A stretch of DNA of 53,840 bases from a virus (taxonomy: Duplodnaviria; Caudoviricetes), in IMG/VR virus record IMGVR_UViG_3300019360_000004, positions 1 to 53,840 of that record. One strand, 5' to 3'. The notes under the pieces were generated by a model. The model had not been told where the DNA came from, searched no databases, and was given only the letters and a program-made list of their open reading frames with translations. This document shows positions 3,414 to 53,840 of this stretch, piece after piece. The translations under genes were made by a program, and so were the position numbers. The first letter of the stretch is position 1. The number at the start of each line of letters is the position of its first letter.

Positions 3414-4766
3414 ATGGCTGAGATACGCCGTAATGGAAGCACTACACATGGTCTCCCAACTAATTTGATGATGGAGTTGGGGACTACTGGCCTCCGGCGG
3501 TACGGTGGGTACATTCGTGAGCAGTACCTCCCAGCGCTTGTCGGTTTGCAGGGTGTGCGTACCTTCAAACAAATGGGCCGCGATTCTATTCTAGGTGGTG
3601 TGCTCTATGCCAATGAAACGTTGATCCGGCAAGCAGGCTGGCGAGTAGACCCTGCCGATCACTCGAATCTAGCCCAGGCACATGCCGATCTGGTTGACAG
3701 CATGCTGTTCCAGGATATGAGTCAGTCCTGGCCGGTCTTTCTGAGTGAGGCGCTGAGTTTTCAGCTCTATGGCTGGGCATATCATGAGATTTGCTGGAAG
3801 CGTCGCTTAGGCGAGATACCACCGTCGGGATATGATCCGACGAGTCCCGAGTGGGATTGGTGGGCGACCAGTCAGTATGATGATGGACTGATTGCTCCCC
3901 GCAAATTGCCGATTCGGTCGCAGGATACGTTGCTGCAATGGGAGTTTGACCGCAGTGGTGGCGTCCAGGCCATGGTGCAGCAAGATCCCATCGTCGGGAA
4001 ACAGGCGACCATTCCGATAGACAAGGCCTTGCTCTTTCGCCTTTTCTCGGAAAAGGCGAACCCCGAAGGACGGAGTTTGTTTCTTGCGGCGTATGATGAT
4101 TGGTATGCTGCGAAACATATTAAGCGCATCGAAGGGATTGGGATTGAACGCGACCTTGCGGGGATGTTTCACGCGCGGCTTCCGCCGGAATATCTGAGTG
4201 CCAATGCCTCCCTCGAGGAGGCAAATATCCGCGAATACGTCAAGAAAATGGTCACGCAAGTACACCGCGATGAGCTGGAAGGTTTGGTCACGCCTCTGGC
4301 GTATGATGCGAATGGCAATGAGTTATTTCAATTTGAACTTTTGACGACTGGGGGCACGCGGCAATTTGATACCACCGCGATCATTCAACGTTATGATACT
4401 CGTAAGTTACAAGCGGTATTAGCGAATATCCTGATGGTAGGGATGCAAGGCCGTACGGGAAGCTATAGTCTTGGTGAGACGCTGAGTGATCTGTACATGG
4501 CGGGCCTGACCGCCATTGCGCATAGTTTGACAGAGGTATTGAATCGCCATCTGCTCCCCCGGATCTGGGCACTGAATGCGTTACCGCGTGCGACCATGCC
4601 GCGTGTGGTGCATGGGCACTTGAAACAGGTCGATTTTGATAAATTTACTTCCGGAGTGCTACGGCTCAGTCAGGCTGGGATGGTATTAACGCCCCAGGAT
4701 GAAATCCATATTCGCATGGAGTCCGGCTTTCCGCACGTCGTCCCTGATGCACAGGAAGAGATCTAG
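3414..4766 (+). CDS. Portal protein (DUF935-like)
   Basis: 450 aa directly after terL; YGWAYHEICW, NPEGRSL and GIERDLAG motifs. Confidence 0.88.
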   Translation: MAEIRRNGSTTHGLPTNLMMELGTTGLRRYGGYIREQYLPALVGLQGVRTFKQMGRDSILGGVLYANETLIRQAGWRVDPADHSNLAQAHADLVDSMLFQDMSQSWPVFLSEALSFQLYGWAYHEICWKRRLGEIPPSGYDPTSPEWDWWATSQYDDGLIAPRKLPIRSQDTLLQWEFDRSGGVQAMVQQDPIVGKQATIPIDKALLFRLFSEKANPEGRSLFLAAYDDWYAAKHIKRIEGIGIERDLAGMFHARLPPEYLSANASLEEANIREYVKKMVTQVHRDELEGLVTPLAYDANGNELFQFELLTTGGTRQFDTTAIIQRYDTRKLQAVLANILMVGMQGRTGSYSLGETLSDLYMAGLTAIAHSLTEVLNRHLLPRIWALNALPRATMPRVVHGHLKQVDFDKFTSGVLRLSQAGMVLTPQDEIHIRMESGFPHVVPDAQEEI

Positions 4767-6448: not shown

Positions 6449-7831
6449 ATGGCTACACGTCTCACAAAATTGTCCATCGGTAAAGTGGCGCTGGTGCCAA
6501 AAGGGGCGAACCAGGAAGCTTATGTCTTGCTCTATAAGATGGACAAAGCGGAGTGGACCACGGCGACGGTCAACAATTTTCCCGATAGTTCATTCGCCTA
6601 TGTCGAGCCGGGTGATAAGGATCCGGACGGGAAGACGACTCCACGCAGCAAGCGTCACCTGCCCTACAAGGATGCGGCTGGGAAGCCCGATGCCGCCCAT
6701 ACACGCAACGCCCTTTCGCGGCTTCCGCAGACGAACATTTCGGCCAGCGCGAAAGCCAGCGCCAAGCGCAAACTTTTGGCGGCCGCACGCTCGTTGGGGA
6801 TTAACGCCACTACTAATACACAAAAGGATCTAGGGATGGATGATACGGCGATGGCGATGGATGAGGAGCGAGAATCTCCGCCGATGACGTTAGAAGAACG
6901 GCAGCAGGCGCGCCAGCTCTATGCGCAATGGGGGCCTCTCTGGCGTGATTTCTGCGCGACTGTTAACGAGATTATGGACTGGGACGATGACGATGCGCAA
7001 TATGCCGACATTCTGATGCAGTCTATTGAGCAATTCTCGACACAGGCAACTGCCATCTTGTCCGACCTGGGCCTTCTTACCAAAGCTGCCCCGCTATTTG
7101 CCGTGCTGAATGAGGTGACGAAGGCCGGGGCCGTAATGAGCGGAGCCCGTCGAGCGCGTTTACAAGCGGCGATTGGGGCCTTACAGGCTATTCTGGATGA
7201 AGCGAATCCACAAACGGGTGGAGAAACGACCACCCCAGCGACGAAAGGAGTCCGCATGACTGTGACTGTTGATGAAATAACCAAACGGGCTGAAACCGCT
7301 GAGGCTCGTGTGCATGTCCTCGAAGCGGAATTGCTCCAGGCGAAAATGTCGCCTGAGGAACAAGAAGCGGAATACCTCAAGAATTTGCCCGATGCGGTGC
7401 GGAAGCAGTACACAGCCGATAAGGTGGAAAAAGCTGCCCTGCGTGAGGAACTGCGAATTGAGAAAGAGGCGCGGCAGCGGCAGGAGTACATCGAAAAGAC
7501 GGTGACGTATCGCCTCGTTGGGATGACACCCGATCATTGGAATGTGCTAAAGGCGATTGATGGCCTGCCGCAGCAGGAACGTGATGAATTGCTCCGCATG
7601 TTGGCCAGTGCCCATGAGGTGATCAAAACGTCTGGGCTGTTGAAAGTCCATGGGAAAGACGGTGTTGCCCCTGTGATGGGAAGCGCCCTCGAGCGCATCG
7701 AAAAAATGGCACGCGAGCGTGCGGCCGCAAGTGAGGGCAAGCTCACCTATGAGCAAGCCTATGATCGGATCAGTAGCGAACAACCGACGTTGTTTGCTGA
7801 GGCTCGGAGCGAGCAGCGGAGGGTGGCATAA
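6449..7831 (+). CDS. Capsid scaffold / maturation-associated protein
   Basis: VALVPKGAN N-terminus, FPDSSFAY...HTRNALSR domain, coiled-coil C-terminus; internal RBS+ATG at 7256. Confidence 0.7.
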   Translation: MATRLTKLSIGKVALVPKGANQEAYVLLYKMDKAEWTTATVNNFPDSSFAYVEPGDKDPDGKTTPRSKRHLPYKDAAGKPDAAHTRNALSRLPQTNISASAKASAKRKLLAAARSLGINATTNTQKDLGMDDTAMAMDEERESPPMTLEERQQARQLYAQWGPLWRDFCATVNEIMDWDDDDAQYADILMQSIEQFSTQATAILSDLGLLTKAAPLFAVLNEVTKAGAVMSGARRARLQAAIGALQAILDEANPQTGGETTTPATKGVRMTVTVDEITKRAETAEARVHVLEAELLQAKMSPEEQEAEYLKNLPDAVRKQYTADKVEKAALREELRIEKEARQRQEYIEKTVTYRLVGMTPDHWNVLKAIDGLPQQERDELLRMLASAHEVIKTSGLLKVHGKDGVAPVMGSALERIEKMARERAAASEGKLTYEQAYDRISSEQPTLFAEARSEQRRVA

Positions 7832-8236: not shown

Positions 8237-9214
8237 ATGCCTCAGCCATCCTTTTTAGATGTGCATGTGGATGTGCCGCTGACCAATATGTCAGTCGCGT
8301 ACATCCAAAGCCAGGACATGTTTATCGCCACCAAGGCCGCTCCGATTGTCCCTGTGGACCACAAGTCTAATAAGTATTATGTATGGAACAAAGACGATTG
8401 GTTCCGGGATGAGGCACAACTCCGGGGCGACTCTGAAGAGTCGGCCGGCGGGGGGATGCGGCTTTCCACGGATAACTATTCCTGCGACGTTTTTGCTTTC
8501 CACAAAGATGTGGGGCATTTGACGCAGGCTAATCAAGATCCGCAGGTGAATATCGATCGGGCCTCGACGTTGCTCGTGACGCAGCGTATGCTCCTGCGTC
8601 GGGAGAAACAGTGGGCGACGGATTACTTCACCACGGGCGTGTGGGCGACTGATCGTACGGGTGTCGCCTCCTCTCCATCGGCAACGCAGTTTGTCTATTG
8701 GTCGGATTACAGCGTGTCTGATCCGATTAATGATGTTGAGACTGGGAAAAGCACGATCCTGCTCAATACCGGATTTATGGCGAATACTCTGGTATTAGGC
8801 TACCAGGTTTTTGCTAAATTGAAACAGCATCCGGATCTTATTGATCGGATCAAATACACCCAGCGGGGTGTCGTGACGGAAGAAATCATGGCTGAGGTGT
8901 TCGGGGTACAAAATCTGTTGGTCGCCAAGGCGGTGCAGAACACTGCGGATGAAGGGCAGACCGGCTCGTATAGTTTTGTGCACGGCAAAGCGGCCTGGTT
9001 GGGCTATGTGAATCCGGCGCCGGAAATGATGGCCCCAAGTGCGATGTACACGTTTGGCTGGACTGGCGTGAGTGAAGGCATGGGGGCCACGATTGGGGTC
9101 GCGAACTTCTACCTCCAACATCTCAAAACCTGGCGCTACGAGGCTGAGATGGGATGGGACAATAAGGTTGTTGCGACTGATCTGGGCTATTTCTTTGCCT
9201 CTGCTGTTGCTTAG
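8237..9214 (+). CDS. Major capsid protein
   Basis: 325 aa; HVDVPLTNMSVAY start, LKQHPDLIDRIKYT, DLGYFFASAV end. Confidence 0.9.
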   Translation: MPQPSFLDVHVDVPLTNMSVAYIQSQDMFIATKAAPIVPVDHKSNKYYVWNKDDWFRDEAQLRGDSEESAGGGMRLSTDNYSCDVFAFHKDVGHLTQANQDPQVNIDRASTLLVTQRMLLRREKQWATDYFTTGVWATDRTGVASSPSATQFVYWSDYSVSDPINDVETGKSTILLNTGFMANTLVLGYQVFAKLKQHPDLIDRIKYTQRGVVTEEIMAEVFGVQNLLVAKAVQNTADEGQTGSYSFVHGKAAWLGYVNPAPEMMAPSAMYTFGWTGVSEGMGATIGVANFYLQHLKTWRYEAEMGWDNKVVATDLGYFFASAVA

Positions 9215-23288: not shown

Positions 23289-26200
23289 ATGCCGATGGTA
23301 GTGCTCGAACTACAGGCGAAAGGCGCGGCAGAAGCGACGCAGGCCGTAAAATCGGTTGGGGATGCGCTGACGCAGTTTGCCACGGTGGTTGCCCGGAGCA
23401 GTGCCGATACGGCGGCGCTCGCGCAGGCCGTTGCCAAAGCCGAAGCCACCATGGGGCAGCTACGTCCAACCACCCAGGCCGATGCTGACAATTTGCGGGT
23501 GTTGCAACAACAAGTGACCGCTGTCAAAGACAGCTTGGGGGCTATGACCACGGCGACACAGCAGACCGCCACTGCAACGCAACAAGGTGCAACGAGTATC
23601 AAGCAGTTTGAACAAACGGTGCAGAGTAGTAGTCAGGCTGTTAAAGGAGCAACTCAGGATAGTCGAACGTGGCAAGTGTCGTTGCTCGATCTTGCCAAAG
23701 CTGGCGCCGTGATGGGTCTCGGCTTTCAGGGGATTTCGACAATTGCAGGGTGGTTTCGGGATGCTATGAGTAGCACCGTACAATTTCAACAGGCAATGGC
23801 CAATGTCAATACGCTTGTTCTCGGCAGTACGCAAGTGCAGGCACAATTACGAACTGAATTGCTGCAATTACCGCCAATCTTGGGCTCTGCTACCGAGTTA
23901 GCGAAAGGATTATATCAGGTACTCTCTGCGGGAGTAGAACCTGCAAAAGCCGTGGCGTTTCTCAAGGAGTCTGCGCTATTAGCCAAGGCTGGCTTAGCTG
24001 ATCTTGACACCGCAACGATTGCCCTGACCAAGACAATGGCGGCCTATAAAATCCCCGTCGAGCAGGCGTCCGCAGTCAGCGATGTATTATTCAAAGCTGT
24101 CGAAGTTGGCCAGGGCACGCTTCAGCAATTTGCCCAGGCGATGCCCCAGGTGACGCAATTGGCTGCGGCAATGGGCGTGAATTTCAAAGATACCGCCGCA
24201 GTGATGGCCACATTGTCGCAGACATTTAAAAGTACTGACACGGCTGCGACCGGCTTCGCATCGCTTCTGCGTCAGCTCTCGCAAAACAGTGCAGAATTTT
24301 TGGCATTAGGCATTGATATCAAGAAAGTGATCAGTGAAGAGGGCATTATTGGGGCTATTCGTATTCTGCAACAGGTCACAGGAGGTAGTTCCGAACGACT
24401 GCGTAAATTTGTCCAAGATGCCGAGGGCGTCAACGCTGCCTTGGCCTTGATGGGACCACAGTTTCAAACACTCATTGAGGCCCAACGGAAAATGGGTGAG
24501 GCCGCTGGCGTGGTAGGAAAAGCAGTCAAAGAACAGACGCAGACCGCAGGCGAAGCCTGGACGGCCCTGGTGAGTAGTCTTGATAAACTAGCACAGCAAC
24601 TTGCCCCGCCGTTTCTTGGGGCATTTGCAGCGATTGTGCAGGGTGCTGTGATATTGATAGAAAATCTTCGCACGTTGACCAAGACCGTCATCAATTTGTT
24701 TACTTTTAAGCCGACCAATGTGCTACCGACGGAAATACAAAAAACGGGTGAAGCTGCCAAGGCCGCCGCTGAAAATGTCAAACTATTGGATGATGCATTT
24801 AGAGACACAACTGATCGAGGTGAGCGAGTGAAACGGGCATTGGAGAATGTAAAGCCAACGCTCGAAGGGAATACCATAGAGTATACCAATCTTGGCACAA
24901 CATTGGGTGTGGTTATACCACAGATGGACACAGTAGCCAAAAAAGCAGAAGCACAGAAAAATGCTTTTGATGAGTCAACTAAAACCCTGACAGGCTTTAA
25001 TACTGCCCTCAATAATATCAAGAAATCTGGTGAGATTGGGCAGATCATTCCTACTGAGGAACTTCAGAAAAACCTGAAAACAGTCATCAACAGTCTTGGG
25101 GAGTTTGCTGAATCCGGCATACTGAGTAATACACAAGTACGTCAAGCGTTTGTACAGACTGAGAAAACCATTCGAGAAACGCAAGGCACGGGCTCCCAGA
25201 CATATCAAGATCTGATCGCCATGTGGAGTGGCTGGGAGGCGCAGGTACGCAACAGTACAGGAGTCGTATCGAAAGAAGTAGCCCAGGCCGCCGCGGTACA
25301 AGCGGCGGCCGCCGCGCAAGCCAAGCAGGCGCTGGAAGGCGAAGCCCAGGCCCGCCTCGCCGAGGCGCAGGTCATGCTCCAGCTCGCCGAGAGCAAGACT
25401 GTTGCGGAGCGCAAGATTGCGCAGGCCGCCGTCGATACCGCGAAACAGGCGGTCCTTAGTGCACGGGAACAGACCCTTGCTGCTGAGCAAGTGGCGCTTG
25501 CGAAGCAAAAGCAAGCCGTACAAGCGGACCTTACCGTCAAAGTGGAGGAGCGTAACGCCAGACTCATTGAGATCAATGCCAAGATGGAAGCGAATGCCGT
25601 GGAGCAGGCGGCCTTGGCTCACATCAGGGCCGGTGAGGCCGCGCTCGCCGCGGCACGACAGAAGCAAGTTGCCGCTGAAACTGCCTTGCGACTCGTTGCG
25701 GCGCAGCGTGAAGAAGCGCAAGCAGTCGTGCAGGGCGCGCAGGCGGTCGTGGCTGCGGCAGAGAGTCGGCTACAAGCCGCGTTGGTGACGAGTCGCGGGG
25801 TGATCGATGCCAATGTCCGCATGGCACAAGGGGACGTGGAAGCGGCGAAACAAGCCCTCTTTGCGGCGCAGCAGAAGGAACTGGCTGCACAACAAACCGC
25901 ATTGGCCTATAAGCGCGTTGAAATTGCCTCTGATACCAGTACGAGCACAGAGGTACGGAATCAGCAGTTGGCAGCGAACGCAGCGCAACAAGCCGCACTA
26001 GCCAGAGAGAAAGGCGCCGCGCAGGCGGCGGAGGGCTACCGCCAAATTCAGCAGTCAAGCCAGACAGCGGGGAAATCGGAGAGGGAACGCATAGATGCCC
26101 TCCGAGAGGGCTTCACAGACACGGAGAGCGGCATCACGAAGTTCAGTGATGGGCTGTCGCTTAACATTAGCAGAGTGAAAGACCTCAGTTTTACGATTAC

Positions 26201-27338
26201 TGGCATGGCGGCATCGGTGGGACTCTGGCTGAGTAATACCCCAGTCATTTGGGAAAAAATGGGATCGGATATCGCCACCGTTACGCGGCAAATGAGGGAA
26301 TTAGAGGCAGCTCAAAGGCGCCTTTATACAGACTTAATACAATGGCAATTCCCTGGCACCGGTGCATTTAACTGGATCAATAAGGGCCAGTTAGAAATCC
26401 TTGGTCAGCTCGGAAAGAGACTGCATGAACTCATGATGCAGTGGGCTAGAGACACGACCGATGTCCAGGCTCTTTCCGTAGCGATGGCTCGTGATGTCAA
26501 CCTGGCCTTCGCCGCACTCGGAATACAGACAGGACAAGCACTGAAAGCCGCCGCTGAGAAGGCGATTGCCGCTTTTCAGGCCATCCAGCGGAGTGGCACC
26601 CTGACCGGCGAAGCGCTGCAAGAACTGTTTGTCCGCAATGTATTACCAGCCATCCAGCAAGCCTATGGCAGAATGACAGGCTCGATCATGGCCATGAATA
26701 TGACGATGGTCGATGCTGTAGCCGCCGCGCTCGATTTCTTAGGTGCCAAATCCGATAAGATGTTGCGAGACGAGGCCGACGCGGCCAAGCGTGCCTTTGA
26801 GATTATCAAAGCGGCAGGTGCAGCCACCGGCCAAAATCTCGAGGATATCTGGACCAACGATGTCCTTCCCAAAATCGAAAAAGCTTACGGCAAGATGGCC
26901 GATAAGATTGTCGACGATAATAAGAAAATCCGTGACAGCGCGATGGAAGCCGCAGCAGCCGTAGGGCTCTTGGTCCCCACGAGTGTTGCTCCGCCCACTG
27001 GCCCTTTCCCTGGACCTCCGTCTGATGTCCCCTATGTTCCGCCATTAGGCCCTGGACCAGCTTCATACCAGCACGGCACCGCCTACGTCCCACGTACCGC
27101 CTGGTACCAACTCCACCAGGGCGAGCAGGTCGTGCCGCGTGGCATGCCCCAAGGGCAACCAGGGCGCGATGTGGCCGGCCCGATTCAGGTCACGTTTGGC
27201 CAAATCACCGTGCAGGTCCAGGGTGACGCCGGTGGCCGGGCCCCACAACAGCTCGGCCGTGACGTGGAAGAAGCCCTGGATAAAGCGATTCGTGCGGGAC
27301 GGTTTACCTACCAGATGAAACGTGCACTAGGATTGTAA
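23289..27338 (+). CDS. Tape measure protein (TP901-like core)
   Basis: 1349 aa, Ala/Gln-rich helical; FQQAMANVNTL...GLYQVLSAG; C-terminal GTAYVP..LHQGEQVVP. Confidence 0.92.
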   Translation: MPMVVLELQAKGAAEATQAVKSVGDALTQFATVVARSSADTAALAQAVAKAEATMGQLRPTTQADADNLRVLQQQVTAVKDSLGAMTTATQQTATATQQGATSIKQFEQTVQSSSQAVKGATQDSRTWQVSLLDLAKAGAVMGLGFQGISTIAGWFRDAMSSTVQFQQAMANVNTLVLGSTQVQAQLRTELLQLPPILGSATELAKGLYQVLSAGVEPAKAVAFLKESALLAKAGLADLDTATIALTKTMAAYKIPVEQASAVSDVLFKAVEVGQGTLQQFAQAMPQVTQLAAAMGVNFKDTAAVMATLSQTFKSTDTAATGFASLLRQLSQNSAEFLALGIDIKKVISEEGIIGAIRILQQVTGGSSERLRKFVQDAEGVNAALALMGPQFQTLIEAQRKMGEAAGVVGKAVKEQTQTAGEAWTALVSSLDKLAQQLAPPFLGAFAAIVQGAVILIENLRTLTKTVINLFTFKPTNVLPTEIQKTGEAAKAAAENVKLLDDAFRDTTDRGERVKRALENVKPTLEGNTIEYTNLGTTLGVVIPQMDTVAKKAEAQKNAFDESTKTLTGFNTALNNIKKSGEIGQIIPTEELQKNLKTVINSLGEFAESGILSNTQVRQAFVQTEKTIRETQGTGSQTYQDLIAMWSGWEAQVRNSTGVVSKEVAQAAAVQAAAAAQAKQALEGEAQARLAEAQVMLQLAESKTVAERKIAQAAVDTAKQAVLSAREQTLAAEQVALAKQKQAVQADLTVKVEERNARLIEINAKMEANAVEQAALAHIRAGEAALAAARQKQVAAETALRLVAAQREEAQAVVQGAQAVVAAAESRLQAALVTSRGVIDANVRMAQGDVEAAKQALFAAQQKELAAQQTALAYKRVEIASDTSTSTEVRNQQLAANAAQQAALAREKGAAQAAEGYRQIQQSSQTAGKSERERIDALREGFTDTESGITKFSDGLSLNISRVKDLSFTITGMAASVGLWLSNTPVIWEKMGSDIATVTRQMRELEAAQRRLYTDLIQWQFPGTGAFNWINKGQLEILGQLGKRLHELMMQWARDTTDVQALSVAMARDVNLAFAALGIQTGQALKAAAEKAIAAFQAIQRSGTLTGEALQELFVRNVLPAIQQAYGRMTGSIMAMNMTMVDAVAAALDFLGAKSDKMLRDEADAAKRAFEIIKAAGAATGQNLEDIWTNDVLPKIEKAYGKMADKIVDDNKKIRDSAMEAAAAVGLLVPTSVAPPTGPFPGPPSDVPYVPPLGPGPASYQHGTAYVPRTAWYQLHQGEQVVPRGMPQGQPGRDVAGPIQVTFGQITVQVQGDAGGRAPQQLGRDVEEALDKAIRAGRFTYQMKRALGL

Positions 27339-33935: not shown

Positions 33936-35186
33936 TCATGAGTATGCAACAATGCGTTGGGCAATCCACTCCACTACGGGGAGACAGACGCTGTTGCCCA
34001 GCAGGCGATAGCGTGCGCTATCGCTGATTGCCCGGCCATCGTCACCATAGGCGGTCCAGTTTTTTGGATAGCCCTGGAGCCGCTCACATTCCCCCGGTGT
34101 CAGGCGCCGGATTCCGAACGTTCTCCCTATTGGGCAAACAACCGCCACCTGTCCGCCACGATTGATGTGGCTTGTATCAAAGTTCATCGCTCGCAGCGTC
34201 GGCGCAATGTTTTCCTGGCTATCCTGGCCAGCGTCTTTCGAGGAAAACGCGACAATGGGTGTTCCTCTCCCTGTGCCGTCCTCGCTGGCGTCTGCCCCTT
34301 CAGCGGTGAGCGCGTGTGCAATATGTGGGTGCACCACGAATGTCTCACTCTCGAAATCGAGCCGCCCGTGATGGGCATTGCAGGCAGTGCTCACGTCAAG
34401 CGGGCCATTGGTGTTGTTCCCGCCAAACGTGATGAGTCCTCCTCCACAATCAAAGTCTGTTCCGAGTCCGCCACCTGCTTTGGCAAGATTGATCACATTG
34501 CGCTCATCCCAAGTAGTGACTACAAGATGTCCGGCCTGGGCTTGATTGTCATCTGCGCCACATGTTCCAACGCCATTTGCAGTAAGGGCGGCAACGCTCG
34601 CCCCCTCTTCACGGCGCGGCGGAGGATTCCACGCGCTGCCGTCGCGCTCAAAGAGTATTTCGACGGCGCCACCGTTTCCAAGACTTGCGACAAGGAAGAC
34701 ACGCTGGCGCCGCTGTGGTACACCATCGAATTGAGCGTCAAGCACCCGCCAGGCGACGCAATACCCGAGTTCGACCAGCCCGCGAAGGATGGTGGCAAAG
34801 TCTCGTCCGCCGGCGCTGGATAGAAGACCGGGGACATTCTCGATGACAACCCATCGCGGGTGATACAGGCCAACAGTCCGTACAAACTCGAACCAGAGCC
34901 CTGACCGCTCGCCAGCCAGTCCCGCGCGGCGTCCAGCCATTGAGAGATCCTGGCAGGGAAATCCACCGGTAAGAAGGTCAATTGGTCTTCTGCCAAAGGT
35001 TTTGGCTGTGATTGATCTGACATCGTTGACAATCTCCACGCCTGGGAAATGGCGTCGCAAGACGCTTCGTGCCTGCATCTCAATCTCGCAGAGACCTATC
35101 AGGTGAGCACCAGCACGCCGGAACGCTTCCTCGAAGCCACCAATGCCACTAAAAAGACCCACATATCTCAATGGTAGCGCTGGCAT
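33936..35186 (-). CDS. DNA (cytosine-5)-methyltransferase
   Basis: Motifs I LFSGIGG, IV GGFPCQDLS, VI ENVPGL, VIII QRRQRVF, IX RRLTPGECERLQG and X LGNSV. Confidence 0.95.
   Translation of the reverse strand: MPALPLRYVGLFSGIGGFEEAFRRAGAHLIGLCEIEMQARSVLRRHFPGVEIVNDVRSITAKTFGRRPIDLLTGGFPCQDLSMAGRRAGLAGERSGLWFEFVRTVGLYHPRWVVIENVPGLLSSAGGRDFATILRGLVELGYCVAWRVLDAQFDGVPQRRQRVFLVASLGNGGAVEILFERDGSAWNPPPRREEGASVAALTANGVGTCGADDNQAQAGHLVVTTWDERNVINLAKAGGGLGTDFDCGGGLITFGGNNTNGPLDVSTACNAHHGRLDFESETFVVHPHIAHALTAEGADASEDGTGRGTPIVAFSSKDAGQDSQENIAPTLRAMNFDTSHINRGGQVAVVCPIGRTFGIRRLTPGECERLQGYPKNWTAYGDDGRAISDSARYRLLGNSVCLPVVEWIAQRIVAYS
34520..35023 (-). CDS. Nested alternative-frame ORF within the methyltransferase (beta-subunit-like)
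   Basis: 167 aa; SLSQVLE..KYSLS..AARGILRRAVKRG..LP. Confidence 0.55.
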   Translation of the reverse strand: MSDQSQPKPLAEDQLTFLPVDFPARISQWLDAARDWLASGQGSGSSLYGLLACITRDGLSSRMSPVFYPAPADETLPPSFAGWSNSGIASPGGCLTLNSMVYHSGASVSSLSQVLETVAPSKYSLSATAARGILRRAVKRGRALPPLLQMALEHVAQMTIKPRPDIL

Positions 35187-35452
35187 AACGTCTCCTGGAG
35201 CCCAAAGAATCGACCACAGTGTGGACACGTCCACGGCATTGCCGTGATATCATGCCAGGCCCCACAGCAGGCGATCTGGAACGATGGCGTTAGAGGCCCT
35301 GGCTTGAATCGATTGGCATAGACTCGGTCTCGTGCCCTTTTTAGACAGACGACACAGTTTACATACCATGGAACTGCGGGGATATTTTTATGGTTTGGAC
35401 ACAAGCTAGCGGTCTTCCGTTCAGCATAAGAGGGGCGGTTGTAGGGAATCAC
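35168..35452 (-). CDS. Cys-rich hypothetical protein
   Basis: CVVC, CCG and CPHCG. Confidence 0.5.
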   Translation of the reverse strand: MIPYNRPSYAERKTASLCPNHKNIPAVPWYVNCVVCLKRARDRVYANRFKPGPLTPSFQIACCGAWHDITAMPWTCPHCGRFFGLQETLCQRYH

Positions 35453-40188: not shown

Positions 40189-40935
40189 CTAGAAGGGAGG
40201 CGCATTATCGTTGGCGGCCCGCCGCTTTTGATCGGCCATCCCGTCAGCGCCCATCGTAGGGACCGCCCGCCCTGGGGTCATGGACCGGAAGAGCGGCGGC
40301 GCATGCAGCGGGGCGCCGGCCTCGTACCAGGCGGCTTCCGCAAGCCAGTCCTCCCGATCCTGCGGATAGCGCGTGGCATGAAGTCGACAGACCTCGGCCG
40401 CACGGCGGTCTTGTTCTTCCGGAGGGAGGTGTTGGATGGCGAAGAACAGTTCGATATGCCCCGATGCCCAGGGTGATTGCTCTGCCTTGGCCGCCTGAGT
40501 GAGGGCAGTCCCTACCGCGAGGCCCTGGGCGCGTTGTTGCCGTTCCTCCTCCGCACGTTGAGCGATCTTGTCATACGCCGCGTGCATCGCCTGGATACCC
40601 TGTCGTCGTCCTTCGGCCCAACTGAGTAGGGCCCCCGTAGTGGCATCGGCCATGCCGCTATAGGTGCTGATTTGCTCGTAGACCCAACTCAGGACGCTGC
40701 GAATCGTCTCGCGCGCACGCTCGGGATCGTTCGGTAACCACCGATGCAGATAGGTGGTCAGATGGGCTTCTAAGGCTGGGACACCTTTCTGTTCAGCGAG
40801 CGCGAGATAATGAGCGTGTCGTGCGCGCGCGCCGGCGGGACTGAGCGTCTCTGGTGTTTTGATACACAGCAGACAGTCGTCTGGTATACTCAGCGTCGAT
40901 CCTACGGCGTGATTATTGTCGGTGCGTTGAGGCAT
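40189..40935 (-). CDS. Replication-associated hypothetical protein
   Basis: AAAGGAG RBS; directly downstream of the initiator. Confidence 0.5.
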   Translation of the reverse strand: MPQRTDNNHAVGSTLSIPDDCLLCIKTPETLSPAGARARHAHYLALAEQKGVPALEAHLTTYLHRWLPNDPERARETIRSVLSWVYEQISTYSGMADATTGALLSWAEGRRQGIQAMHAAYDKIAQRAEEERQQRAQGLAVGTALTQAAKAEQSPWASGHIELFFAIQHLPPEEQDRRAAEVCRLHATRYPQDREDWLAEAAWYEAGAPLHAPPLFRSMTPGRAVPTMGADGMADQKRRAANDNAPPF

Positions 40936-41860
40936 GAGTCTGTCTCCTTTGGTATTCGTAGTTACGGTGGAGCCACCCGCGAACAAAGCGTTTCCACCCT
41001 CCGGGACTTGCGGGACGTTTGCGGGGATTCTCACGGAGGTAGGCCGAGAGTTTGCCAAACTCCGCGTTGAGCCAGGGTTGACCAAAGACACCAGCAAGGG
41101 CTTGTGAAATATCTATCCACCAGTCCGCATCATTAAGCGCGTCGAAATCGAGCAATGTATAGTCGAGTAGAAGGGCTCGGAGCCAATCATCTTGGGGAAG
41201 TGGGTTCAATGAAGGGCGGCGAGTGGTGCGGGGGTAGTGCGGTTCAGGCATTTTCATCAGGGGTAGCATAGGCGTAGAGTCTGAAGGGATAGGCGGAATG
41301 AAAGGTTCGTGCCTTTCATCTCCGCCTAAACTCCTGAACGTAGTGAAGGAGTTTTCTTCTTTTTCTAGAAGATCTTCTCTAGAAGAATTCTCTAGAAAGA
41401 GTTCACGTGGTGCACTACGTAGTTCACCAGATGCACTAGGTGGTTCACGTGGTGCACTACGTAGTTCACCAGATGCACTAGTAGTGTTTATACTAGGTGG
41501 TACATCTGGTGTACTACGAAGAGAAAGTTCATCCATTTTCTCAAGGGTTGTGCTCAAGGGGAGCGATAATAAGGTATAGATGTTTTCTTCATGATGTCCC
41601 GCTCTAGCGACACGTTGGCTTTTGGCAAGAAGGTGGTGTACGGTTAAAGTTTCAAGAGTTTTGAGAATGGTGTTGCGTGAGATATGCAGTGTGCGGGCCA
41701 GAGTGGTCAGCGACGGTGTTGCATGGCCCTCGCGATCCGCATAACGAGCGAGGGCGGCATAGACGGCAATGCCATAGGCCCCAATCTGTGGGCCATAGAT
41801 ATCAACGATGATATCATGGATCCAAAACCAATGAGCTTCACGGCGGTCGCGGATTTCCAT
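40913..41860 (-). CDS. Replication initiator (N-terminal winged HTH, lambda O-like layout)
   Basis: AVYAALARYAD...PSLTTLARTLHISRNT...NIYTL; internal iterons. Confidence 0.8.
   Translation of the reverse strand: MEIRDRREAHWFWIHDIIVDIYGPQIGAYGIAVYAALARYADREGHATPSLTTLARTLHISRNTILKTLETLTVHHLLAKSQRVARAGHHEENIYTLLSLPLSTTLEKMDELSLRSTPDVPPSINTTSASGELRSAPREPPSASGELRSAPRELFLENSSREDLLEKEENSFTTFRSLGGDERHEPFIPPIPSDSTPMLPLMKMPEPHYPRTTRRPSLNPLPQDDWLRALLLDYTLLDFDALNDADWWIDISQALAGVFGQPWLNAEFGKLSAYLRENPRKRPASPGGWKRFVRGWLHRNYEYQRRQTHASTHRQ
41401..41516. repeat. Iteron-like 21-bp repeats, probable replication origin
   Basis: GTTCAC-N4-TGCACTA at 41401, 41422, 41443 and 41464; degenerate copy near 41500. Confidence 0.75.
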
Positions 41861-41991
41861 CGTGACCTCCACGCGAACCTGGTGTGCGGGAGTGGCGGCG
41901 CGGCGTGCGGGTAGGTTAGTTCCGCCAGATGCCTCTGTTGCCGCGCCGTGATGAACAGCCGTTGCTGTCCGGGCGAACAGCAACGGCTCTC

Positions 41992-42020
41992 AGTATAGCA
42001 CGCCAGGTGAGGAATGTACA
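41992..42020 (-). promoter_or_regulatory. Promoter for the replication operon
   Basis: TGTACA-17 bp-TATACT with extended TG. Confidence 0.55.
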
Positions 42021-42039
42021 TGTTTTTGCCGAAAAAAAA

Positions 42040-42048
42040 TGCTAGACT
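42040..42048 (+). promoter_or_regulatory. Extended -10 promoter for the Xre-csf operon
   Basis: TGcTAGACT upstream of AGGAGG. Confidence 0.4.
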
Positions 42049-42071
42049 TGTGTAGGAGGTGACGATGAGTA

Positions 42072-42344
42072 ATGAGTGAGATAGAGATTTTCTCGAATCT
42101 GGATATGCGGCAATTCGCGGCGCGATTGCGCGCCGCTCGGGAGCGAGCGGGCCTGACACAGACCCAGGTCGCGCTGTTTGCGGCACTGAATCTGGGCAAT
42201 TATAATGAGCTGGAATGTGGCCATAAGCCTGGCTTGCGTGCGACGACGCTCTACCGGCTTTGCCAGGTATTGCGCGTCAGCGCCGATGATCTGCTCGGGT
42301 TTGATCTGCCCATGGCGGCGCTCGCGGGGGAGACTGAGGCATGA
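42072..42344 (+). CDS. Xre/Cro-C1 HTH regulator
   Basis: RLRAARERAGLTQTQVA...LRVSADDLLG. Confidence 0.9.
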   Translation: MSEIEIFSNLDMRQFAARLRAARERAGLTQTQVALFAALNLGNYNELECGHKPGLRATTLYRLCQVLRVSADDLLGFDLPMAALAGETEA

Positions 42345-43237
42345 GCCCGTTGCATCAGCAAGTCAGCGCTGCCGTGTCTCTGCTCCCTCCCATCAGTCAT
42401 TTTTTGGCCCCTGATGCGCCAGCCGGCCCGGCGACGGGCCAATGTGGCGTGTGTGGGGTCACCACAGCGGGTATGTACCCGCGCGCCACGGTGCTCGATA
42501 CGACGGGGAGCAATATCACCACCCTCTTTCCCCACAACACGCCTTACATGTGCCGCCATTGTACCGCGCTGTGGAAACGGCCCAAGCACTGGCATCGAGG
42601 GATCTTTGCGACGGCCGAGACCACCTATTTCCCGCTGATTGCCGACAATGAGCACCGGAGCGCAGACCGCCCGCTTTGGCGCGATCTCCTCTGCACGCCC
42701 GGTTGCTGGCATGAGAGGCCCCGCGCCTGTGTCCTGACGACAGACCCCAAAAAACGTGTCTGGCCACACGCGCGGGTCTCGCAGGGGGCACGGCTCCTGC
42801 TCTATCTCCATGATCCGACTCGCGGTGTCAGTGGCAATCGGTGGGTCACCTGGGAGCGCCTGGCACAAACCCTCGCGCTCGTCGAGCAGGCATATGCGTT
42901 GGGCGCAGCCAAGGCGCAGATTGCCGAGACGCTGTATACGCCTAGGCTCCTGAAAGCCCACGGCTTGGCCCCGTTGCAGACGCTGGAAGTGGTGCTCCGG
43001 CAGGTCCGACATCTGCCGGAGTTTCTCCCGGCGCTGATTGTGGCGCAAAAACCTCCTGAGGAGACCCTGCATGCTGATACGTCCGCAGACCGACCGCATA
43101 CTGCTCCACCTGGAGTTGACCACCAGCTTGGCACACGGCGAGGCTGGTGCCAATCGCGTGGGGCCGAGCAACTTGAGCTTATTGCACCGGCAGCTCGCGC
43201 TCCTGCCGGTGAGTGCGAGTGCGAGCCTGGCGGGTGA
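42341..43237 (+). CDS. csf1: Type IV-B large subunit Csf1 (Cas8-like)
   Basis: CGVCG...CRHC zinc finger, DPKKRVW, YALGAAKAQI..LY..LKAHGL and ALIVAQK; first gene of the csf cluster. Confidence 0.75.
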   Translation: MSPLHQQVSAAVSLLPPISHFLAPDAPAGPATGQCGVCGVTTAGMYPRATVLDTTGSNITTLFPHNTPYMCRHCTALWKRPKHWHRGIFATAETTYFPLIADNEHRSADRPLWRDLLCTPGCWHERPRACVLTTDPKKRVWPHARVSQGARLLLYLHDPTRGVSGNRWVTWERLAQTLALVEQAYALGAAKAQIAETLYTPRLLKAHGLAPLQTLEVVLRQVRHLPEFLPALIVAQKPPEETLHADTSADRPHTAPPGVDHQLGTRRGWCQSRGAEQLELIAPAARAPAGECECEPGG

Positions 43238-44507
43238 CCCCCTCCTTCGCATTAGCGCAACGCTCAACCTCTTCCTGGTCGGTGATCAGGTGTTGCCCTT
43301 TCTTGATGCGCTGGATGGCCCCCAGGTGCTCGCCTGCCTGCTCGTCAGTCTGTTCCCCCAGATATACAGCGGCGAGGATGGCGAGGGCGTGGGCCTGTTT
43401 AGCGGGATGCAACGCTATCAATACCTAAGCACGCGACTCGGGGACGCTGTGGTCTCGTGCACCACCCTGGGCGAGTTGTGGGCGGTCGTGAGTCGCCATC
43501 TAGGCTTGCCGCATCCGGTGGAGGAGTGGCACGCGCCGCTGCTCGCCTTGTGCACGCTGCTGCCCCAGACACAGGCGGCAGTCATGCACGCGCTGCGACA
43601 GACGTTGCCGCTCCTCATGATGGGGGGGCGGGAAATCGCCGAGTCCGTCAAGTGCTGCAATCCTCGCTATGCCACCCGGGCCTCCAGGCCCCTGCAACAG
43701 GCCGTCGTTCCCACGCTTTCCGATGCCCAGCGTGCTACGTTTCAGCAGGCCCTGCCTGAGCGGCAGGCCGTCCTCCTGCCAGCGCTGAGTGGGAATGCGT
43801 TGCGCCATGTGCTCCTGCGGGCACCCGGCGCCGTGCGGCTGCTTCAGGCCCTAGGATTGGATCCGCAGCACGACGCCGTGCCGGTGGGCGTTGAGCGGTT
43901 CCTGTTTGGCGGCGGCAACACGGCGGCCAAAGTCAGCACGCCGAGCAACGCGGATCTCCTGGAAACGACCGTGCGCGCCCGCTATCCATTCGTGGATGCC
44001 CTGGGCGGGGCCGTGGACCGTTTCTTGTTCAGCCGCAGTCAGGTGGCCATCGCGAGTTGGATCGTCTGTCGCGAGCACAATGCGGCTACCGAGGAGATTG
44101 CCGGACTCACATCGCAGGTAAGTCTCCTTGATACGATCTACGAGGAGACCCGCACACGGGCCGGGATTGGGGGCAAGGATGCTGCGAGTGGCCAGATGAT
44201 TTTTAGCTACGAGGTTTTGCCCCTCGGCACACAGGTCCTGGTCGAGATCCGTTTCCAGCCCTGGACGTCGCCACGCACGAAGGGGGCTATGCAGCAGGCC
44301 GTGCAGGATTGGTACGCCAGCGGGGCGTGTCTCGGAGCCAAAAATGCGCAGGGACATGGCGTCTGTCGAGTGCTCCGCGCCGAACTTCCCTATGCGCAGG
44401 AGGCCGCAGACTATCTCATCTCTCTGGAGACCGAGCGGGAGGCGTTGGCGGCAGGTCTCCGAGATGCCACGTTTGGCACAGGAATGGTGTTATGCGCCCA
44501 GATCTAG
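43071..44507 (+). CDS. csf2: Type IV-B Cas7 (Csf2) with a large internal Cas11-like helical insertion
   Basis: LELTTSLAHGE, LPALSGNALRHVLLRAPG, FLFGGG, QMIFSYEVL and G-loop LGAKNAQGHG; GAGGAG RBS. Confidence 0.82.
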   Translation: MLIRPQTDRILLHLELTTSLAHGEAGANRVGPSNLSLLHRQLALLPVSASASLAGDPLLRISATLNLFLVGDQVLPFLDALDGPQVLACLLVSLFPQIYSGEDGEGVGLFSGMQRYQYLSTRLGDAVVSCTTLGELWAVVSRHLGLPHPVEEWHAPLLALCTLLPQTQAAVMHALRQTLPLLMMGGREIAESVKCCNPRYATRASRPLQQAVVPTLSDAQRATFQQALPERQAVLLPALSGNALRHVLLRAPGAVRLLQALGLDPQHDAVPVGVERFLFGGGNTAAKVSTPSNADLLETTVRARYPFVDALGGAVDRFLFSRSQVAIASWIVCREHNAATEEIAGLTSQVSLLDTIYEETRTRAGIGGKDAASGQMIFSYEVLPLGTQVLVEIRFQPWTSPRTKGAMQQAVQDWYASGACLGAKNAQGHGVCRVLRAELPYAQEAADYLISLETEREALAAGLRDATFGTGMVLCAQI

Positions 44508-45229
44508 CCCATCGTGATCCCCTCGATGCCTATGGCGCGCTGTGCGCCACGTTGCCGCATACGCCCCTGCGCGTAACCGTGCAGACGCTGACGCCGGTGG
44601 TCAGCCTTGATCTGCTCAATTTCGATGGCCTTCTGGCCAAAGCGATGGTCCTTGCCACCTGGGGCACGGGCGTGTTCCCCGCCTCGGAGTCCCCTTACTG
44701 GCTCCCTCTGCCGCTGGCATACACGGAGCATGTCGGGCTGCCTCTGTGGCACGCCACCACGCTGTTCCGGGTAGGCGGGGCGGAGGGTGCGACGCATTAC
44801 CATAAGCGCACCGAGGACAATCCATACAGCCTTCTGGCGATCCGCCCGGCGCTTGGGCAGCGCCGCCCACGCCGGCAGCCCTCCACCGCGGCAGGGCAGT
44901 ACATGAATTACCGCATTCCTGAGCCCTATCAGGTGGCGGAGTATTGGGAGTGCCTGTGTCTGGGGCATGCCGGGGAGCTTGCGCGCTTGCTGCCGTATCT
45001 TCAGGGGATCGGGAAAGATTGTGCCCAGGGCTACGGACGTATCCTGGGATGGACCGTGGAGCCGCATGACGGGCCGCTGGCCCCTGACGACACCGACGAG
45101 GTCTGGCGGCCTACACCGACGACCACAGTGACTGGTGTCCTGAGCGGGTGGACGCCTCCCTATTGGAGACGCGATCTATGGTTGCCTTGCCGTGTACCCT
45201 CGCTGACTGGGCCGCCCTGGGCATCATAG
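44492..45229 (+). CDS. csf3: Type IV-B Cas5-like (Csf3)
   Basis: LNFDGLLA, HYHKR, GQYMNYRIP, G-loop GIGKDCAQGYG and PPYW. Confidence 0.82.
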   Translation: MRPDLAHRDPLDAYGALCATLPHTPLRVTVQTLTPVVSLDLLNFDGLLAKAMVLATWGTGVFPASESPYWLPLPLAYTEHVGLPLWHATTLFRVGGAEGATHYHKRTEDNPYSLLAIRPALGQRRPRRQPSTAAGQYMNYRIPEPYQVAEYWECLCLGHAGELARLLPYLQGIGKDCAQGYGRILGWTVEPHDGPLAPDDTDEVWRPTPTTTVTGVLSGWTPPYWRRDLWLPCRVPSLTGPPWAS

Positions 45230-45999
45230 GGCAGGTGCATTATGGTCAACCGGCGCGTGCCCTGCCGTATCGGCGGGTCATTGAGTGTAAGACCTCGGCG
45301 GCGGTGGCACTGATTGCCGACTGGTGGGACAAGGTAGAGGGTCACGGTTATGTCGCTCTCTCCTTTGGCAAGGATAGTCTCGTGACTTGGCATCTGGCGC
45401 AACAGGTGGCGCCGATTCCGGCCGTGTTTGTGGCTCTTGGGCCGTTGGGCGACTGGCCCGACTGTTTGCAACTCAAAGAGGTGCTGCGTGCCGAGCATGA
45501 CTTGTCCGTGATCGAGGTTCCGGCGGTCCCGAGTCATTATGACCGCCTAGTCTTGCAACAGCGCTCTGGCCATCACCAGGGCTGGTCGACGTGTGCCGAA
45601 ACGACGGAGCGGTTTCACCACGAGCAGCCGCAGTGGCGCGGACTCCTTTGGGGCTTGCGTGGAGTCAAAGAGCCGCATCGAGAGGGTATCCATCGTGAAA
45701 TCCTTTTTCACACCCATGGCCTCCTGTACCAGCGCGCCTCGGATAGGCGGTGGGTGGGGGCACCGGTCGGCTGGTGGAAGAACCCCGAGATCTGGGCGTA
45801 CATTGACCTGCATGGGTTACCGTATCCGGCCATGTATGATGTTGATCGGGCGCGGATTCGGAATGGACCGCCTTTCACATTTCCGGGGGAAGCTGTCGGG
45901 CGGATCCGGAACATCCGCCGAGCGTTTCCCGAGATCTTCCGGATCGTCCTCAGTCTGGTACCTGCCGACTATGCCGCGCGGCTCTCACGACAGGCCTAA
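45178..45999 (+). CDS. cysH: CysH-like PAPS-reductase-family protein
   Basis: PP-loop SFGKDS, WGLRG and PVGWWKNPEIWAYI..HGLPYPAMYD. Confidence 0.85.
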   Translation: MVALPCTLADWAALGIIGQVHYGQPARALPYRRVIECKTSAAVALIADWWDKVEGHGYVALSFGKDSLVTWHLAQQVAPIPAVFVALGPLGDWPDCLQLKEVLRAEHDLSVIEVPAVPSHYDRLVLQQRSGHHQGWSTCAETTERFHHEQPQWRGLLWGLRGVKEPHREGIHREILFHTHGLLYQRASDRRWVGAPVGWWKNPEIWAYIDLHGLPYPAMYDVDRARIRNGPPFTFPGEAVGRIRNIRRAFPEIFRIVLSLVPADYAARLSRQA

Positions 46000-46058
46000 G
46001 CGTTGGAGGGCTCCAGGATGGATGACACGAGCGCGGCATCCGCCGTCATCGTCAACTG

Positions 46059-46285
46059 CTGTTTCGGCGTAGCCCTCCACGTCTCCCCGTGACGGACCGT
46101 CACCAATTTGCCACCCCATCGACATTGGTTGCTGTAATAGATTTCATGGAGACCTCCTTAGGGTGTAAACAGCCGCTGTTGGCTGAGCCATTCAGCAACG
46201 AGCGCGGGATCGAGATATTTGTCGGCCATCCGATGGAGAACGACCCGTTGTTTTGGTGTGGCCCTCCACCTCTCCCCGTGACGGA
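46059..46285. repeat. Imperfect ~38-bp direct repeat (46059-46096 and 46248-46285)
   Basis: gccctccac(g/c)tctccccgtgacgga core. Confidence 0.75.
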
Positions 46286-46370
46286 GGGTCGATTCGAGAA
46301 AGTCGATCTCCCAATCTGTGAGTGGGATAGCAACATTGTCGAGCTCTTGTAAGAGGTCATGATCGGTCAT
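46158..46370 (-). CDS. Hypothetical protein
   Basis: LTDWEIDFLES...TPKQ pattern. Confidence 0.6.
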   Translation of the reverse strand: MTDHDLLQELDNVAIPLTDWEIDFLESTLRHGERWRATPKQRVVLHRMADKYLDPALVAEWLSQQRLFTP

Positions 46371-49231: not shown

Positions 49232-50101
49232 TTAGGTGATGTGTTGTGTCAGGTAGGCATCCACGGCCTGGGCCGTAGGATCCTTGTCGTAGAGCCAACG
49301 ACCTACGCCGAATTTTGCCGCAGCCCGTTTAAAGGCCATGGCTTCGGCATTTGACGTTGAGTCTCCGTAGCCGTCAACCTCCTCCTCTTCCTGCCCCGTG
49401 GCTTCGCGGACAATCAGGCCCTCGAGACAAGGAATGGTGAGCCGATAGGTAATCACACAAGCAGTCCCAACACGCTCGATACGCTCTACGGTGCCTTGCC
49501 AGCCGGGCGCGTAGGCATCGAGTACTTTGGCGACGGTTGTCCAATGCAGATATGCAATTTGTGCGGATTTGCCACTTTTTGCCCGGAGCGTCTTCGTGGC
49601 GATACACGCGGCGGGTAAAGGACGGCTGAGGTCGGTCACAATGGTACGAATACTGCGATGATTACTGCCCCATGCGGCGTGAGAAACGTTGGGCGTGGTG
49701 GGTGGTGGTGACGTGAGTGGTATAGACGTCGGGTCTGGCTCAGAGAGCGGGGTTTGGCCATTGATCGCATGCGGGGTTTGTTGTTGCTGCTGGAGAAAGA
49801 CATGAGCATGCTTATACAGCCCCGCTGCGATGCGATGGGCGCAGCGGCCCGCCGGTGCCTGATACCGTGCGTCGTCACACAGACACGATCCGTCCGGACG
49901 GATCGTGTGAAACTTGCCGGGTTCGGAGCGACTGGCGACCACCAGCTGCTCATCGGCGTTTTCTGCCACCTGGCCATCACGCACCAGGACAATGGCCGAT
50001 TCCATGCGATCCCCGACTAACTCGGGGAATCGCTGTTGGAGCGTGCGAGCACACGCATACACGGCGTGCTCCCAGCGTTCAGTCGGAGTTGCGATTGCCA
50101 T
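49232..50101 (-). CDS. Rad52/Rad22-like ssDNA annealing protein with N-terminal SWIM finger
   Basis: CLCDD..CAH; YLHW..LDAYAPGW; AEAMAFKRAAAKFGVGRWLY. Confidence 0.85.
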   Translation of the reverse strand: MAIATPTERWEHAVYACARTLQQRFPELVGDRMESAIVLVRDGQVAENADEQLVVASRSEPGKFHTIRPDGSCLCDDARYQAPAGRCAHRIAAGLYKHAHVFLQQQQQTPHAINGQTPLSEPDPTSIPLTSPPPTTPNVSHAAWGSNHRSIRTIVTDLSRPLPAACIATKTLRAKSGKSAQIAYLHWTTVAKVLDAYAPGWQGTVERIERVGTACVITYRLTIPCLEGLIVREATGQEEEEVDGYGDSTSNAEAMAFKRAAAKFGVGRWLYDKDPTAQAVDAYLTQHIT

Positions 50102-53694: not shown

Positions 53695-53840
53695 ATGGCG
53701 AAGGTGATGACGATTGAAACCAAAATGCATGATGAGTGTACCCCCGGCAGTGAGGCCGAGCAGGTCTATTGTGCGGCCAAGGCCTTCGACGGGTGGGATC
53801 TGGCGAGTGTGTTTGTCACCTTAGATCCGCCGTTGCGCAC
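53695..53840 (+). CDS. Small ORF spanning the circular junction (continues at 124-163)
   Basis: AGGAGG RBS; MAKVMTIETKMHDEC...EKDGIYSL*. Confidence 0.6.
   Translation, partial: MAKVMTIETKMHDECTPGSEAEQVYCAAKAFDGWDLASVFVTLDPPLR
53718..53840. repeat. Terminal direct repeat, right copy
   Basis: Identical to 1-123. Confidence 0.97.

Follow-up and report, generated by a model that had tools for sequence, protein, structure and literature searches.

A type IV-B-like Csf2 with an internal Cas11-like domain encoded by a tailed phage

Among class 1 CRISPR-Cas subtypes, type IV-B is understood least, and a 2026 paper still called its function, biological role and full architecture unclear (PMC13676074). 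In the type IV-B complex of Mycobacterium sp. JS623 (PDB 7JHY), six Csf2 subunits assemble into a helical backbone on RNA and five copies of Cas11 make up a minor filament, each placed at a Csf2-Csf2 interface, with a Cas11 whose fold was described as different from that of other small subunits (Zhou et al. 2021, PMC7937560). The type IV-C complex contains six Cas7-Cas11 pairs along the guide (PMC13676074), and a cysH-like gene is linked to most type IV-B loci (PMC7038947). Here we describe a type IV-B-like operon in a virus genome of 53,840 nucleotides (nt) from IMG/VR (IMGVR_UViG_3300019360_000004), the whole of which constitutes the window analysed, in which a Csf2 of 478 amino acids (aa), termed P0001 (43071-44507, plus strand), carries a Cas11-like domain inside its Cas7 core. 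We estimate at roughly 85% the probability that P0001 is the backbone subunit in a type IV-B-like effector carried by the phage, one in which Cas11 is inserted as a domain, so that the complex would assemble on RNA with Csf1 and Csf3 at a Cas7:Cas11 ratio of 1:1.

Fusions among such subunits are known from other systems, including csf1-csf3 in type IV-E, Cas8-Cas11, Cas10-Cas11 and nuclease-Cas11 fusions, and the tandem proteins Cas7-11e and Cas7-11i (literature including PMC12669027). Cas7-11e (gRAMP, type III-E) and Cas7-11i (type III-I) are single-protein effectors in which three to four Cas7 domains stand in tandem with Cas11 between Cas7 domains (PMC12669027). By contrast, P0001 lacks a tandem array of Cas7 domains with Cas11 between them and instead has one Cas7 core interrupted by the Cas11-like domain, is of type IV rather than type III descent, and would still have to multimerise and need Csf1 and Csf3, the genes for which are kept in the operon; the first-pass annotation, made from the DNA letters alone, had rightly set it apart from the type III-E architecture. 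The arrangement also resembles Cas8 and Cas10 proteins whose C-terminal part is a Cas11-like domain, as found in several type I subtypes and in type III-H (PMC12669027), in that the small subunit is covalently joined, but those fusions are end-to-end on the large subunit and occur once per complex, whereas the phage has an internal insertion in each Cas7. No Cas11 inserted in a type IV Cas7 is described in the literature searched, which comprised portions of PMC7038947, PMC8175902, PMC7937560, PMC10848311, PMC12669027, PMC10910872, PMC13676074 and PMC11127173, and a listing in supplementary locus tables is possible; within that scope, the earlier suggestion of an undescribed type IV variant stands, and the fusion is not catalogued there as common.

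Architecture of the 478-residue Csf2

The plus-strand frame at 43071-44507 is open for 478 codons without a stop, and a GAGGAG Shine-Dalgarno sequence lies 7 nt 5′ of its ATG at 43071. In an alignment with 11 canonical Csf2 proteins (274-338 aa), residues 1 to ~41 and ~227 to 478 are colinear and common to all, with H22 and N34 invariant, and ~185 mostly helical residues between these two Cas7 parts are confined to long forms. The N-terminal Cas7 segment (residues 1-46, 43071-43208), defined by this comparison, contains strand 1, then the AHGE loop, then strand 2 with its NxxLxxR motif. It is followed by the inserted region (residues 47-229, 43209-43757), within which a Cas11-like fold (residues ~63-198, 43257-43664) is bordered by connectors of ~16 aa on the N-terminal side and ~31 aa on the C-terminal side. 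The C-terminal Cas7 core (residues 230-478, 43758-44504) then resumes at a PxxSGNxLRH strand and helix and matches positions 40-293 of an insert-free core hidden Markov model (HMM) with an independent E-value of 3.5e-118. In the phage protein and in the related loci L002-L008 and L010-L014, this HMM aligned on either side of the insert, in one piece covering 2-44 and another covering 40-293, and on short proteins it aligned as one or two pieces without an insert.

An AlphaFold2 model of P0001, with a predicted local distance difference test score (pLDDT) of 81.7 and a predicted template modelling score (pTM) of 0.72, placed strands at residues 9-16 and 38-46, ten helices at 57-225, and a strand at 231-239 followed by the rest of the Cas7 core. 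Compared with Csf2 chains, the whole model aligned over ~250 residues spanning positions 8 to ~470-476, that is, around the insert. The layout first proposed, an N-terminal Cas7 strand, a helical insert and a resumed core, was thereby borne out by both the alignment and the model. A prediction of a two-copy complex of P0001 made with the family alignment scored 0.00 and bears neither way on self-assembly.

The insertion site is the turn of the β-hairpin located between the conserved AHG(E/D) loop and helix α1. In a profile alignment to JS623 Csf2, the chain passes from residue 51 to 58 where P0001 holds the insert, indicating insertion at a tight hairpin turn, which is ~6 residues long in JS623. 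The AHGE loop is nearly invariant in the long family and reads AHGD in short Csf2 proteins (P0001 residues 22-34, 43134-43172). Asn34, invariant in long and short forms alike, stands opposite the putative catalytic Asp42 of JS623 Csf2 in a weak piece of the alignment, and we therefore, tentatively, do not expect the backbone to cleave target RNA.

Relationship of the insert to type IV Cas11

The insert was recognised as Cas11-like by several sequence searches. When the whole of P0001 was compared by phmmer with 177,635 PDB sequences, the sole match was 7jhy_h, 'Csf4 (Cas11)' (E = 9.9e-4), with P0001 residues 119-197 aligned to Cas11 residues 70-146, covering the segment that the first-pass annotation had likened to type IV-B Cas11 and that indeed begins, with RYQYL, at residue 115 (nt 43413). 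A profile of the inserts from 10 viral loci retrieved the same PDB chain, 7jhy_h (E = 8.4e-4), and a whole-family profile matched both 7JHY chains, Csf2 with E = 6.9e-9 and Cas11 with E = 3.3e-3. In addition, the PADLOC Cas11 models PDLC01482, PDLC01697 and PDLC01008 matched residues 105-194 with E-values of 2.2e-4 to 2.7e-3. The insert itself contains ten invariant positions among 29 aligned members, forming the motif GxGLFxGxxRYxxLxxRL.

Structural comparison pointed the same way. Modelled alone, the insert (pLDDT 91.0, pTM 0.87) adopted the helical-bundle fold of type IV Cas11 (7JHY chains g and h), covering 123 of the 143 residues of the 7JHY Cas11 fold. Identity of P0001 to the JS623 proteins is low, at 17% in the structural alignments. 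The monomer model and Foldseek search, which the first annotation had proposed as a check, recovered a Cas7 core around the insert and ranked 7jhy_g first among 350,542 chains for the insert, but only with a weak Foldseek E-value of 1.2. Lower-ranked structural matches included domains of small-subunit type, namely the Cas8c C-terminus, Cas10d, type I-A Cas11, CasB and the Cas11 region of Cas7-11. Moreover, when an insert HMM was run against 3,886 six-frame open reading frames (ORFs), four of the seven best sub-threshold matches were stand-alone cas11 ORFs, of which there were 16 in all (hypergeometric P = 7e-9, with the 16 ORFs mutually related, the cut picked after the list was seen and no match individually significant), and these aligned through their C-terminal helices.

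Several observations weigh against equating the insert with Cas11. Besides the Foldseek value, the sequence similarity is marginal, with only 3-5 of the 29 family members reaching E ≤ 0.01 on any PADLOC Cas11 model, and an hhalign comparison of the insert with the 16 stand-alone viral Cas11 proteins, colinear over 107 columns, gave an E-value of 0.018 and a probability of 2.6%. Helical bundles may reach middling Z-scores by chance, inflating structural scores, and the structures of both P0001 and the insert are predictions. At E ≤ 0.01, the six-frame matches of the insert HMM were limited to long csf2 genes; likewise, searches of a 5.8-billion-protein index, one with the insert region aimed at shorter proteins and one with an insert profile, retrieved no protein at E ≤ 10 and so no close stand-alone relative, by a method that requires shared 5-mers and scales its E-values to 5.8 billion sequences.

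Such values, with individual sequence E-values near 1e-3 and structural scores that bundles inflate, are what one might obtain if the insert were a helical bundle of separate origin, similar to Cas11 only in appearance, that was gained in a Csf2 lineage that had lost cas11. We consider this very improbable, as sequence, fold and the rank enrichment of cas11 ORFs converge on one protein out of very large libraries, type IV Cas11 has been described as having a fold unlike that of other small subunits (PMC7937560), and the presence of the insert is exactly reciprocal to the absence of a cas11 gene over the 12 and 16 loci described below. The agreement of independent lines of evidence on one protein and the margin over the second-ranked match outweigh the caveats, and the assignment of the insert as a Cas11 domain is therefore supported by sequence and modelling, at a similarity that is marginal by sequence.

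An alternative accepts this descent but holds that the domain no longer acts as a small subunit, having been put to another use, for example docking the CysH-like protein or a host factor, or altering filament geometry as a spacer. In its favour, the invariant motif was not seen in the stand-alone viral Cas11 consensus or in the aligned 7JHY segment, residues 47-62 and 199-229 add elements beyond the Cas11-like fold, and the failure to retrieve close stand-alone relatives from the 5.8-billion-protein index implies a strongly diverged domain. However, the phage and the long-form loci contain no other Cas11, leaving the small-subunit role vacant under this alternative, the fold is retained over most of its length, and sequence conservation with Cas11 is best in the C-terminal helices; we thus judge a loss of the small-subunit role unlikely and favour a Cas11 domain that would still occupy the Cas11 position.

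The long-form family and the phage operon

To compare gene neighbourhoods, loci were collected by pattern scans derived from the family alignment, which yielded 28 viral loci and one contig of a metagenome-assembled genome (MAG) (L002-L030). Thirteen of these (L002-L014) have the long csf2, and one (L009) begins inside the gene, leaving 12 with upstream sequence; L003 and L008 have identical ORF layouts and HMM scores, as do L011 and L012. In all 12, a csf1 homologue adjoins or overlaps csf2 with a largest gap of 66 nt, and an HMM of the 16 stand-alone viral Cas11 proteins found nothing significant, with best E-values of 1.1 in the long-form loci and 3.4 in the phage genome. Consistent with the initial claim that the phage has no separate small-subunit gene, csf1 there overlaps the start of csf2. 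By contrast, all 16 short-form loci (L015-L030) have an ORF of 146-202 aa immediately 5′ of csf2, 15 of which match the PADLOC typeIV_Cas11 models PDLC01570 or PDLC01573 (best E = 2.2e-67) and one of which matches PDLC01187 (E = 1e-10). The proposed co-occurrence of long Csf2 with cas11 absence is therefore seen in 12/12 long-form and 16/16 short-form loci, and this reciprocity is what homologous replacement of the gene by the domain predicts.

The long form is widespread. A word-index search returned 43 clusters of 384-488 aa at 32-62% identity, and a profile search of 1.84 billion representatives at 50% identity returned 790 proteins at E ≤ 1e-3, with 141 at E ≤ 1e-30. Among the best 150 of the 790 representatives, HMM classification identified 98 as full-length long forms and the others as fragments or short Csf2 proteins; 138 full-length long forms were classified in all. 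Most of the instances found sit on viral contigs, and tblastn against 50,697 GenBank phage records and 72,556 PLSDB plasmids came back without a match. The source names seen were all 'hypothetical protein', including those of NCBI nr entries from a Caulobacteraceae MAG, and P0001 had no match in Pfam or NCBIfam; against PADLOC typeIV_Cas7 it matched with E = 4.6e-21, limited to residues 230-460.

In an unrooted FastTree phylogeny of the Cas7 core (175 sequences, insert columns removed), a split supported at 0.917 separated all 138 long forms from all 30 complete short forms, so that the long forms constitute one clan. Seven 'short' sequences on the long side, which lack the N-terminal segment, represent fragments cut short or a divergent long form. 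As type III, type IV-C and other type IV-B systems have a separate cas11 (PMC7937560, PMC13676074, in the portions used), a single insertion event is the parsimonious explanation.

The phage operon comprises four overlapping plus-strand genes in the order csf1, csf2::cas11, csf3 and a cysH-like gene. The gene csf1 (42341-43237) encodes a 298-aa Cas8-like large subunit matching PADLOC typeIV_Cas8 PDLC01721 (E = 3e-11), with residues 22-241 aligned to profile positions 13-221 of 227, and it scored 16.1 bits against NCBIfam TIGR03114, below the cut-off of 140. Its frame extends 167 nt into csf2 (43071-43237), with a low-complexity tail at its end; in related loci, the stop-to-stop overlap of the two frames is at most ~120 nt, except in L013 (250 nt), and is 36-52 nt in L002-L004, L006, L008 and L010-L012. 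This unusually long overlap indicates that csf1 of the phage may have lost its original stop codon. An overlap exceeding that in relatives could also be expected if the locus reflected faulty assembly or annotation or a pseudogene in decay, to which we assign a negligible probability: the csf2 frame is fully open behind a good ribosome-binding site, the same architecture recurs in the 138 full-length proteins, which come from many sources and share 31-62% identity, a conservation that refutes an artefact, and an internal insertion cannot arise from read-through of neighbouring genes.

Downstream, csf3 (44492-45229, plus strand) starts with an ATG 16 nt inside the end of csf2 and encodes a 245-aa Cas5 matching PADLOC typeIV_Cas5 PDLC01727 (E = 2e-32) and, below the cut-off, NCBIfam TIGR03116 (E = 4.3e-12). 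The accessory cysH-like gene (CasCysH, 45148-45999, plus strand), which starts at either GTG 45148 or ATG 45178, scores 33.6 bits (E = 5e-8) on Pfam PF01507 PAPS_reduct, for which the cut-off is 22.5. Homologues of the latter are present in all 13 long-form and 12 of 16 short-form loci, and csf3 and the cysH-like gene follow long csf2 in either order: csf3 comes first in the phage, L002-L005 and L008-L010, and the order is swapped in L006, L007 and L011-L014. L004 and L010 have a second, more distant PAPS-reductase-like ORF nearby.

The operon, flanked by a replication-initiator-like gene and small ORFs, thus has type IV-B gene content (PMC7038947, PMC8175902, in the portions used), with a Csf2 backbone, Csf1 and Csf3 in the same operon, an encoded Cas11 and a linked cysH-like gene, except that no cas11 gene separates csf1 from csf2, which overlap directly; this missing gene marks the locus as a variant of type IV-B. 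No CRISPR-like array or array-like repeat family was found in the 53.8-kb genome, and no cas6, helicase or adaptation genes at the locus, the other phage ORFs having been scanned only partly for cas6 and helicases. The JS623 system is similar in encoding Csf1, Cas11, Csf2 and Csf3 with a linked cysH-like gene and no adjacent CRISPR array, cas6 or helicase (PMC7937560); its Cas11, however, is a separate 162-aa protein in a complex of six Csf2 and five Cas11 subunits, whereas in the phage it is a domain within Csf2, and the JS623 system resides on a megaplasmid rather than in a tailed phage. The short-form loci L015-L030, like the phage, lie on viral contigs, have Cas7 cores 23-34% identical in tblastn segments, and are ordered csf1, cas11, csf2, csf3 with the separate cas11 noted above and a Csf2 of ~280-340 aa.

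Just downstream of the cysH-like gene, a 42-nt direct repeat pair (46060-46101 and 46249-46290, 86% identical), the sole such pair near the locus, was considered as a CRISPR mini-array and rejected, as 189 nt separate the copies and both fall within ORFs; they represent a tandem gene duplication, involving a 70-aa minus-strand ORF (46158-46370) and its truncated paralogue (45996-46106), with the motif RHGExWRATPKQ common to the two.

The record is a whole IMG/VR virus genome rated 100% complete, and exact 123-nt direct terminal repeats at 1-123 and 53718-53840 are consistent with a complete phage genome. PHROGs matches identify it by sequence as a tailed phage, with a terminase large subunit (1875-3413), portal (3414-4766), head protease (6449-7831), major head protein (8237-9214, E = 1.4e-88), tape measure protein (23289-27338) and, on the minus strand, a DNA methyltransferase (33936-35234) and an Erf-like annealing protein (49232-50101). 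The tRNA and Rfam scans of the whole genome gave no match. The type IV-B operon lies within a plus-strand block at 42.3-46.0 kb; G+C is 0.63 over 42001-46000 compared with 0.49-0.57 over the first 42 kb, and this raised G+C suggests that the phage acquired the block comparatively recently. Upstream, five to six tandem 21-nt repeats at 41393-41521, which also encode a repeated SASGELRSAPRE peptide, lie inside a minus-strand gene (40913-41983) with an HTH_36 domain (E = 2.6e-7) and a weak match to DnaD_N. These repeats look like iterons of a replication origin inside an initiator gene. In phage lambda, the origin iterons lie within the initiator gene O.

Proposed assembly and significance

The observed domain architecture, the homology of both parts to 7JHY chains, their conservation, the complementary gene distribution and the single clan in the Cas7 tree directly support a Csf2 with an internal Cas11 as a real and new variant of type IV-B. 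By analogy with canonical Csf2, the chimera would most likely polymerise on RNA through its Cas7 core, and the connectors of the model could be long enough for the Cas11 fold to take up the 'belly' position, on its own or a neighbouring subunit. Each backbone subunit would then bring its own Cas11 module, making the Cas7:Cas11 ratio an obligate 1:1 and saving one gene, and Csf1, as the large subunit, and Csf3, as Cas5, would cap the complex. The CysH-like enzyme would presumably provide the effector or accessory activity that supplies the output of the system.

With confidence and doubt about evenly balanced, we further propose that this is another, independent covalent joining of Cas7 and Cas11 after those of types III-E and III-I, and the first in which the domain was placed within a single, repeating Cas7. 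It would define a large type IV-B lineage, so far found mostly on viral contigs, that could receive its own variant name, and a self-sufficient filament subunit uniting backbone and belly, which may alter RNA assembly or capping to the benefit of the phage. A whole lineage of Cas proteins has been missed by current annotation, with no Pfam or NCBIfam match and 'hypothetical protein' names. For the type IV-B family, a natural Cas7::Cas11 chimera would provide an independent evolutionary argument for 1:1 Cas7-Cas11 pairs along the guide, would mark the Cas7 loop that faces the small subunit, and would reduce the complex to three proteins, making it simpler to reconstitute and to study by cryo-EM.

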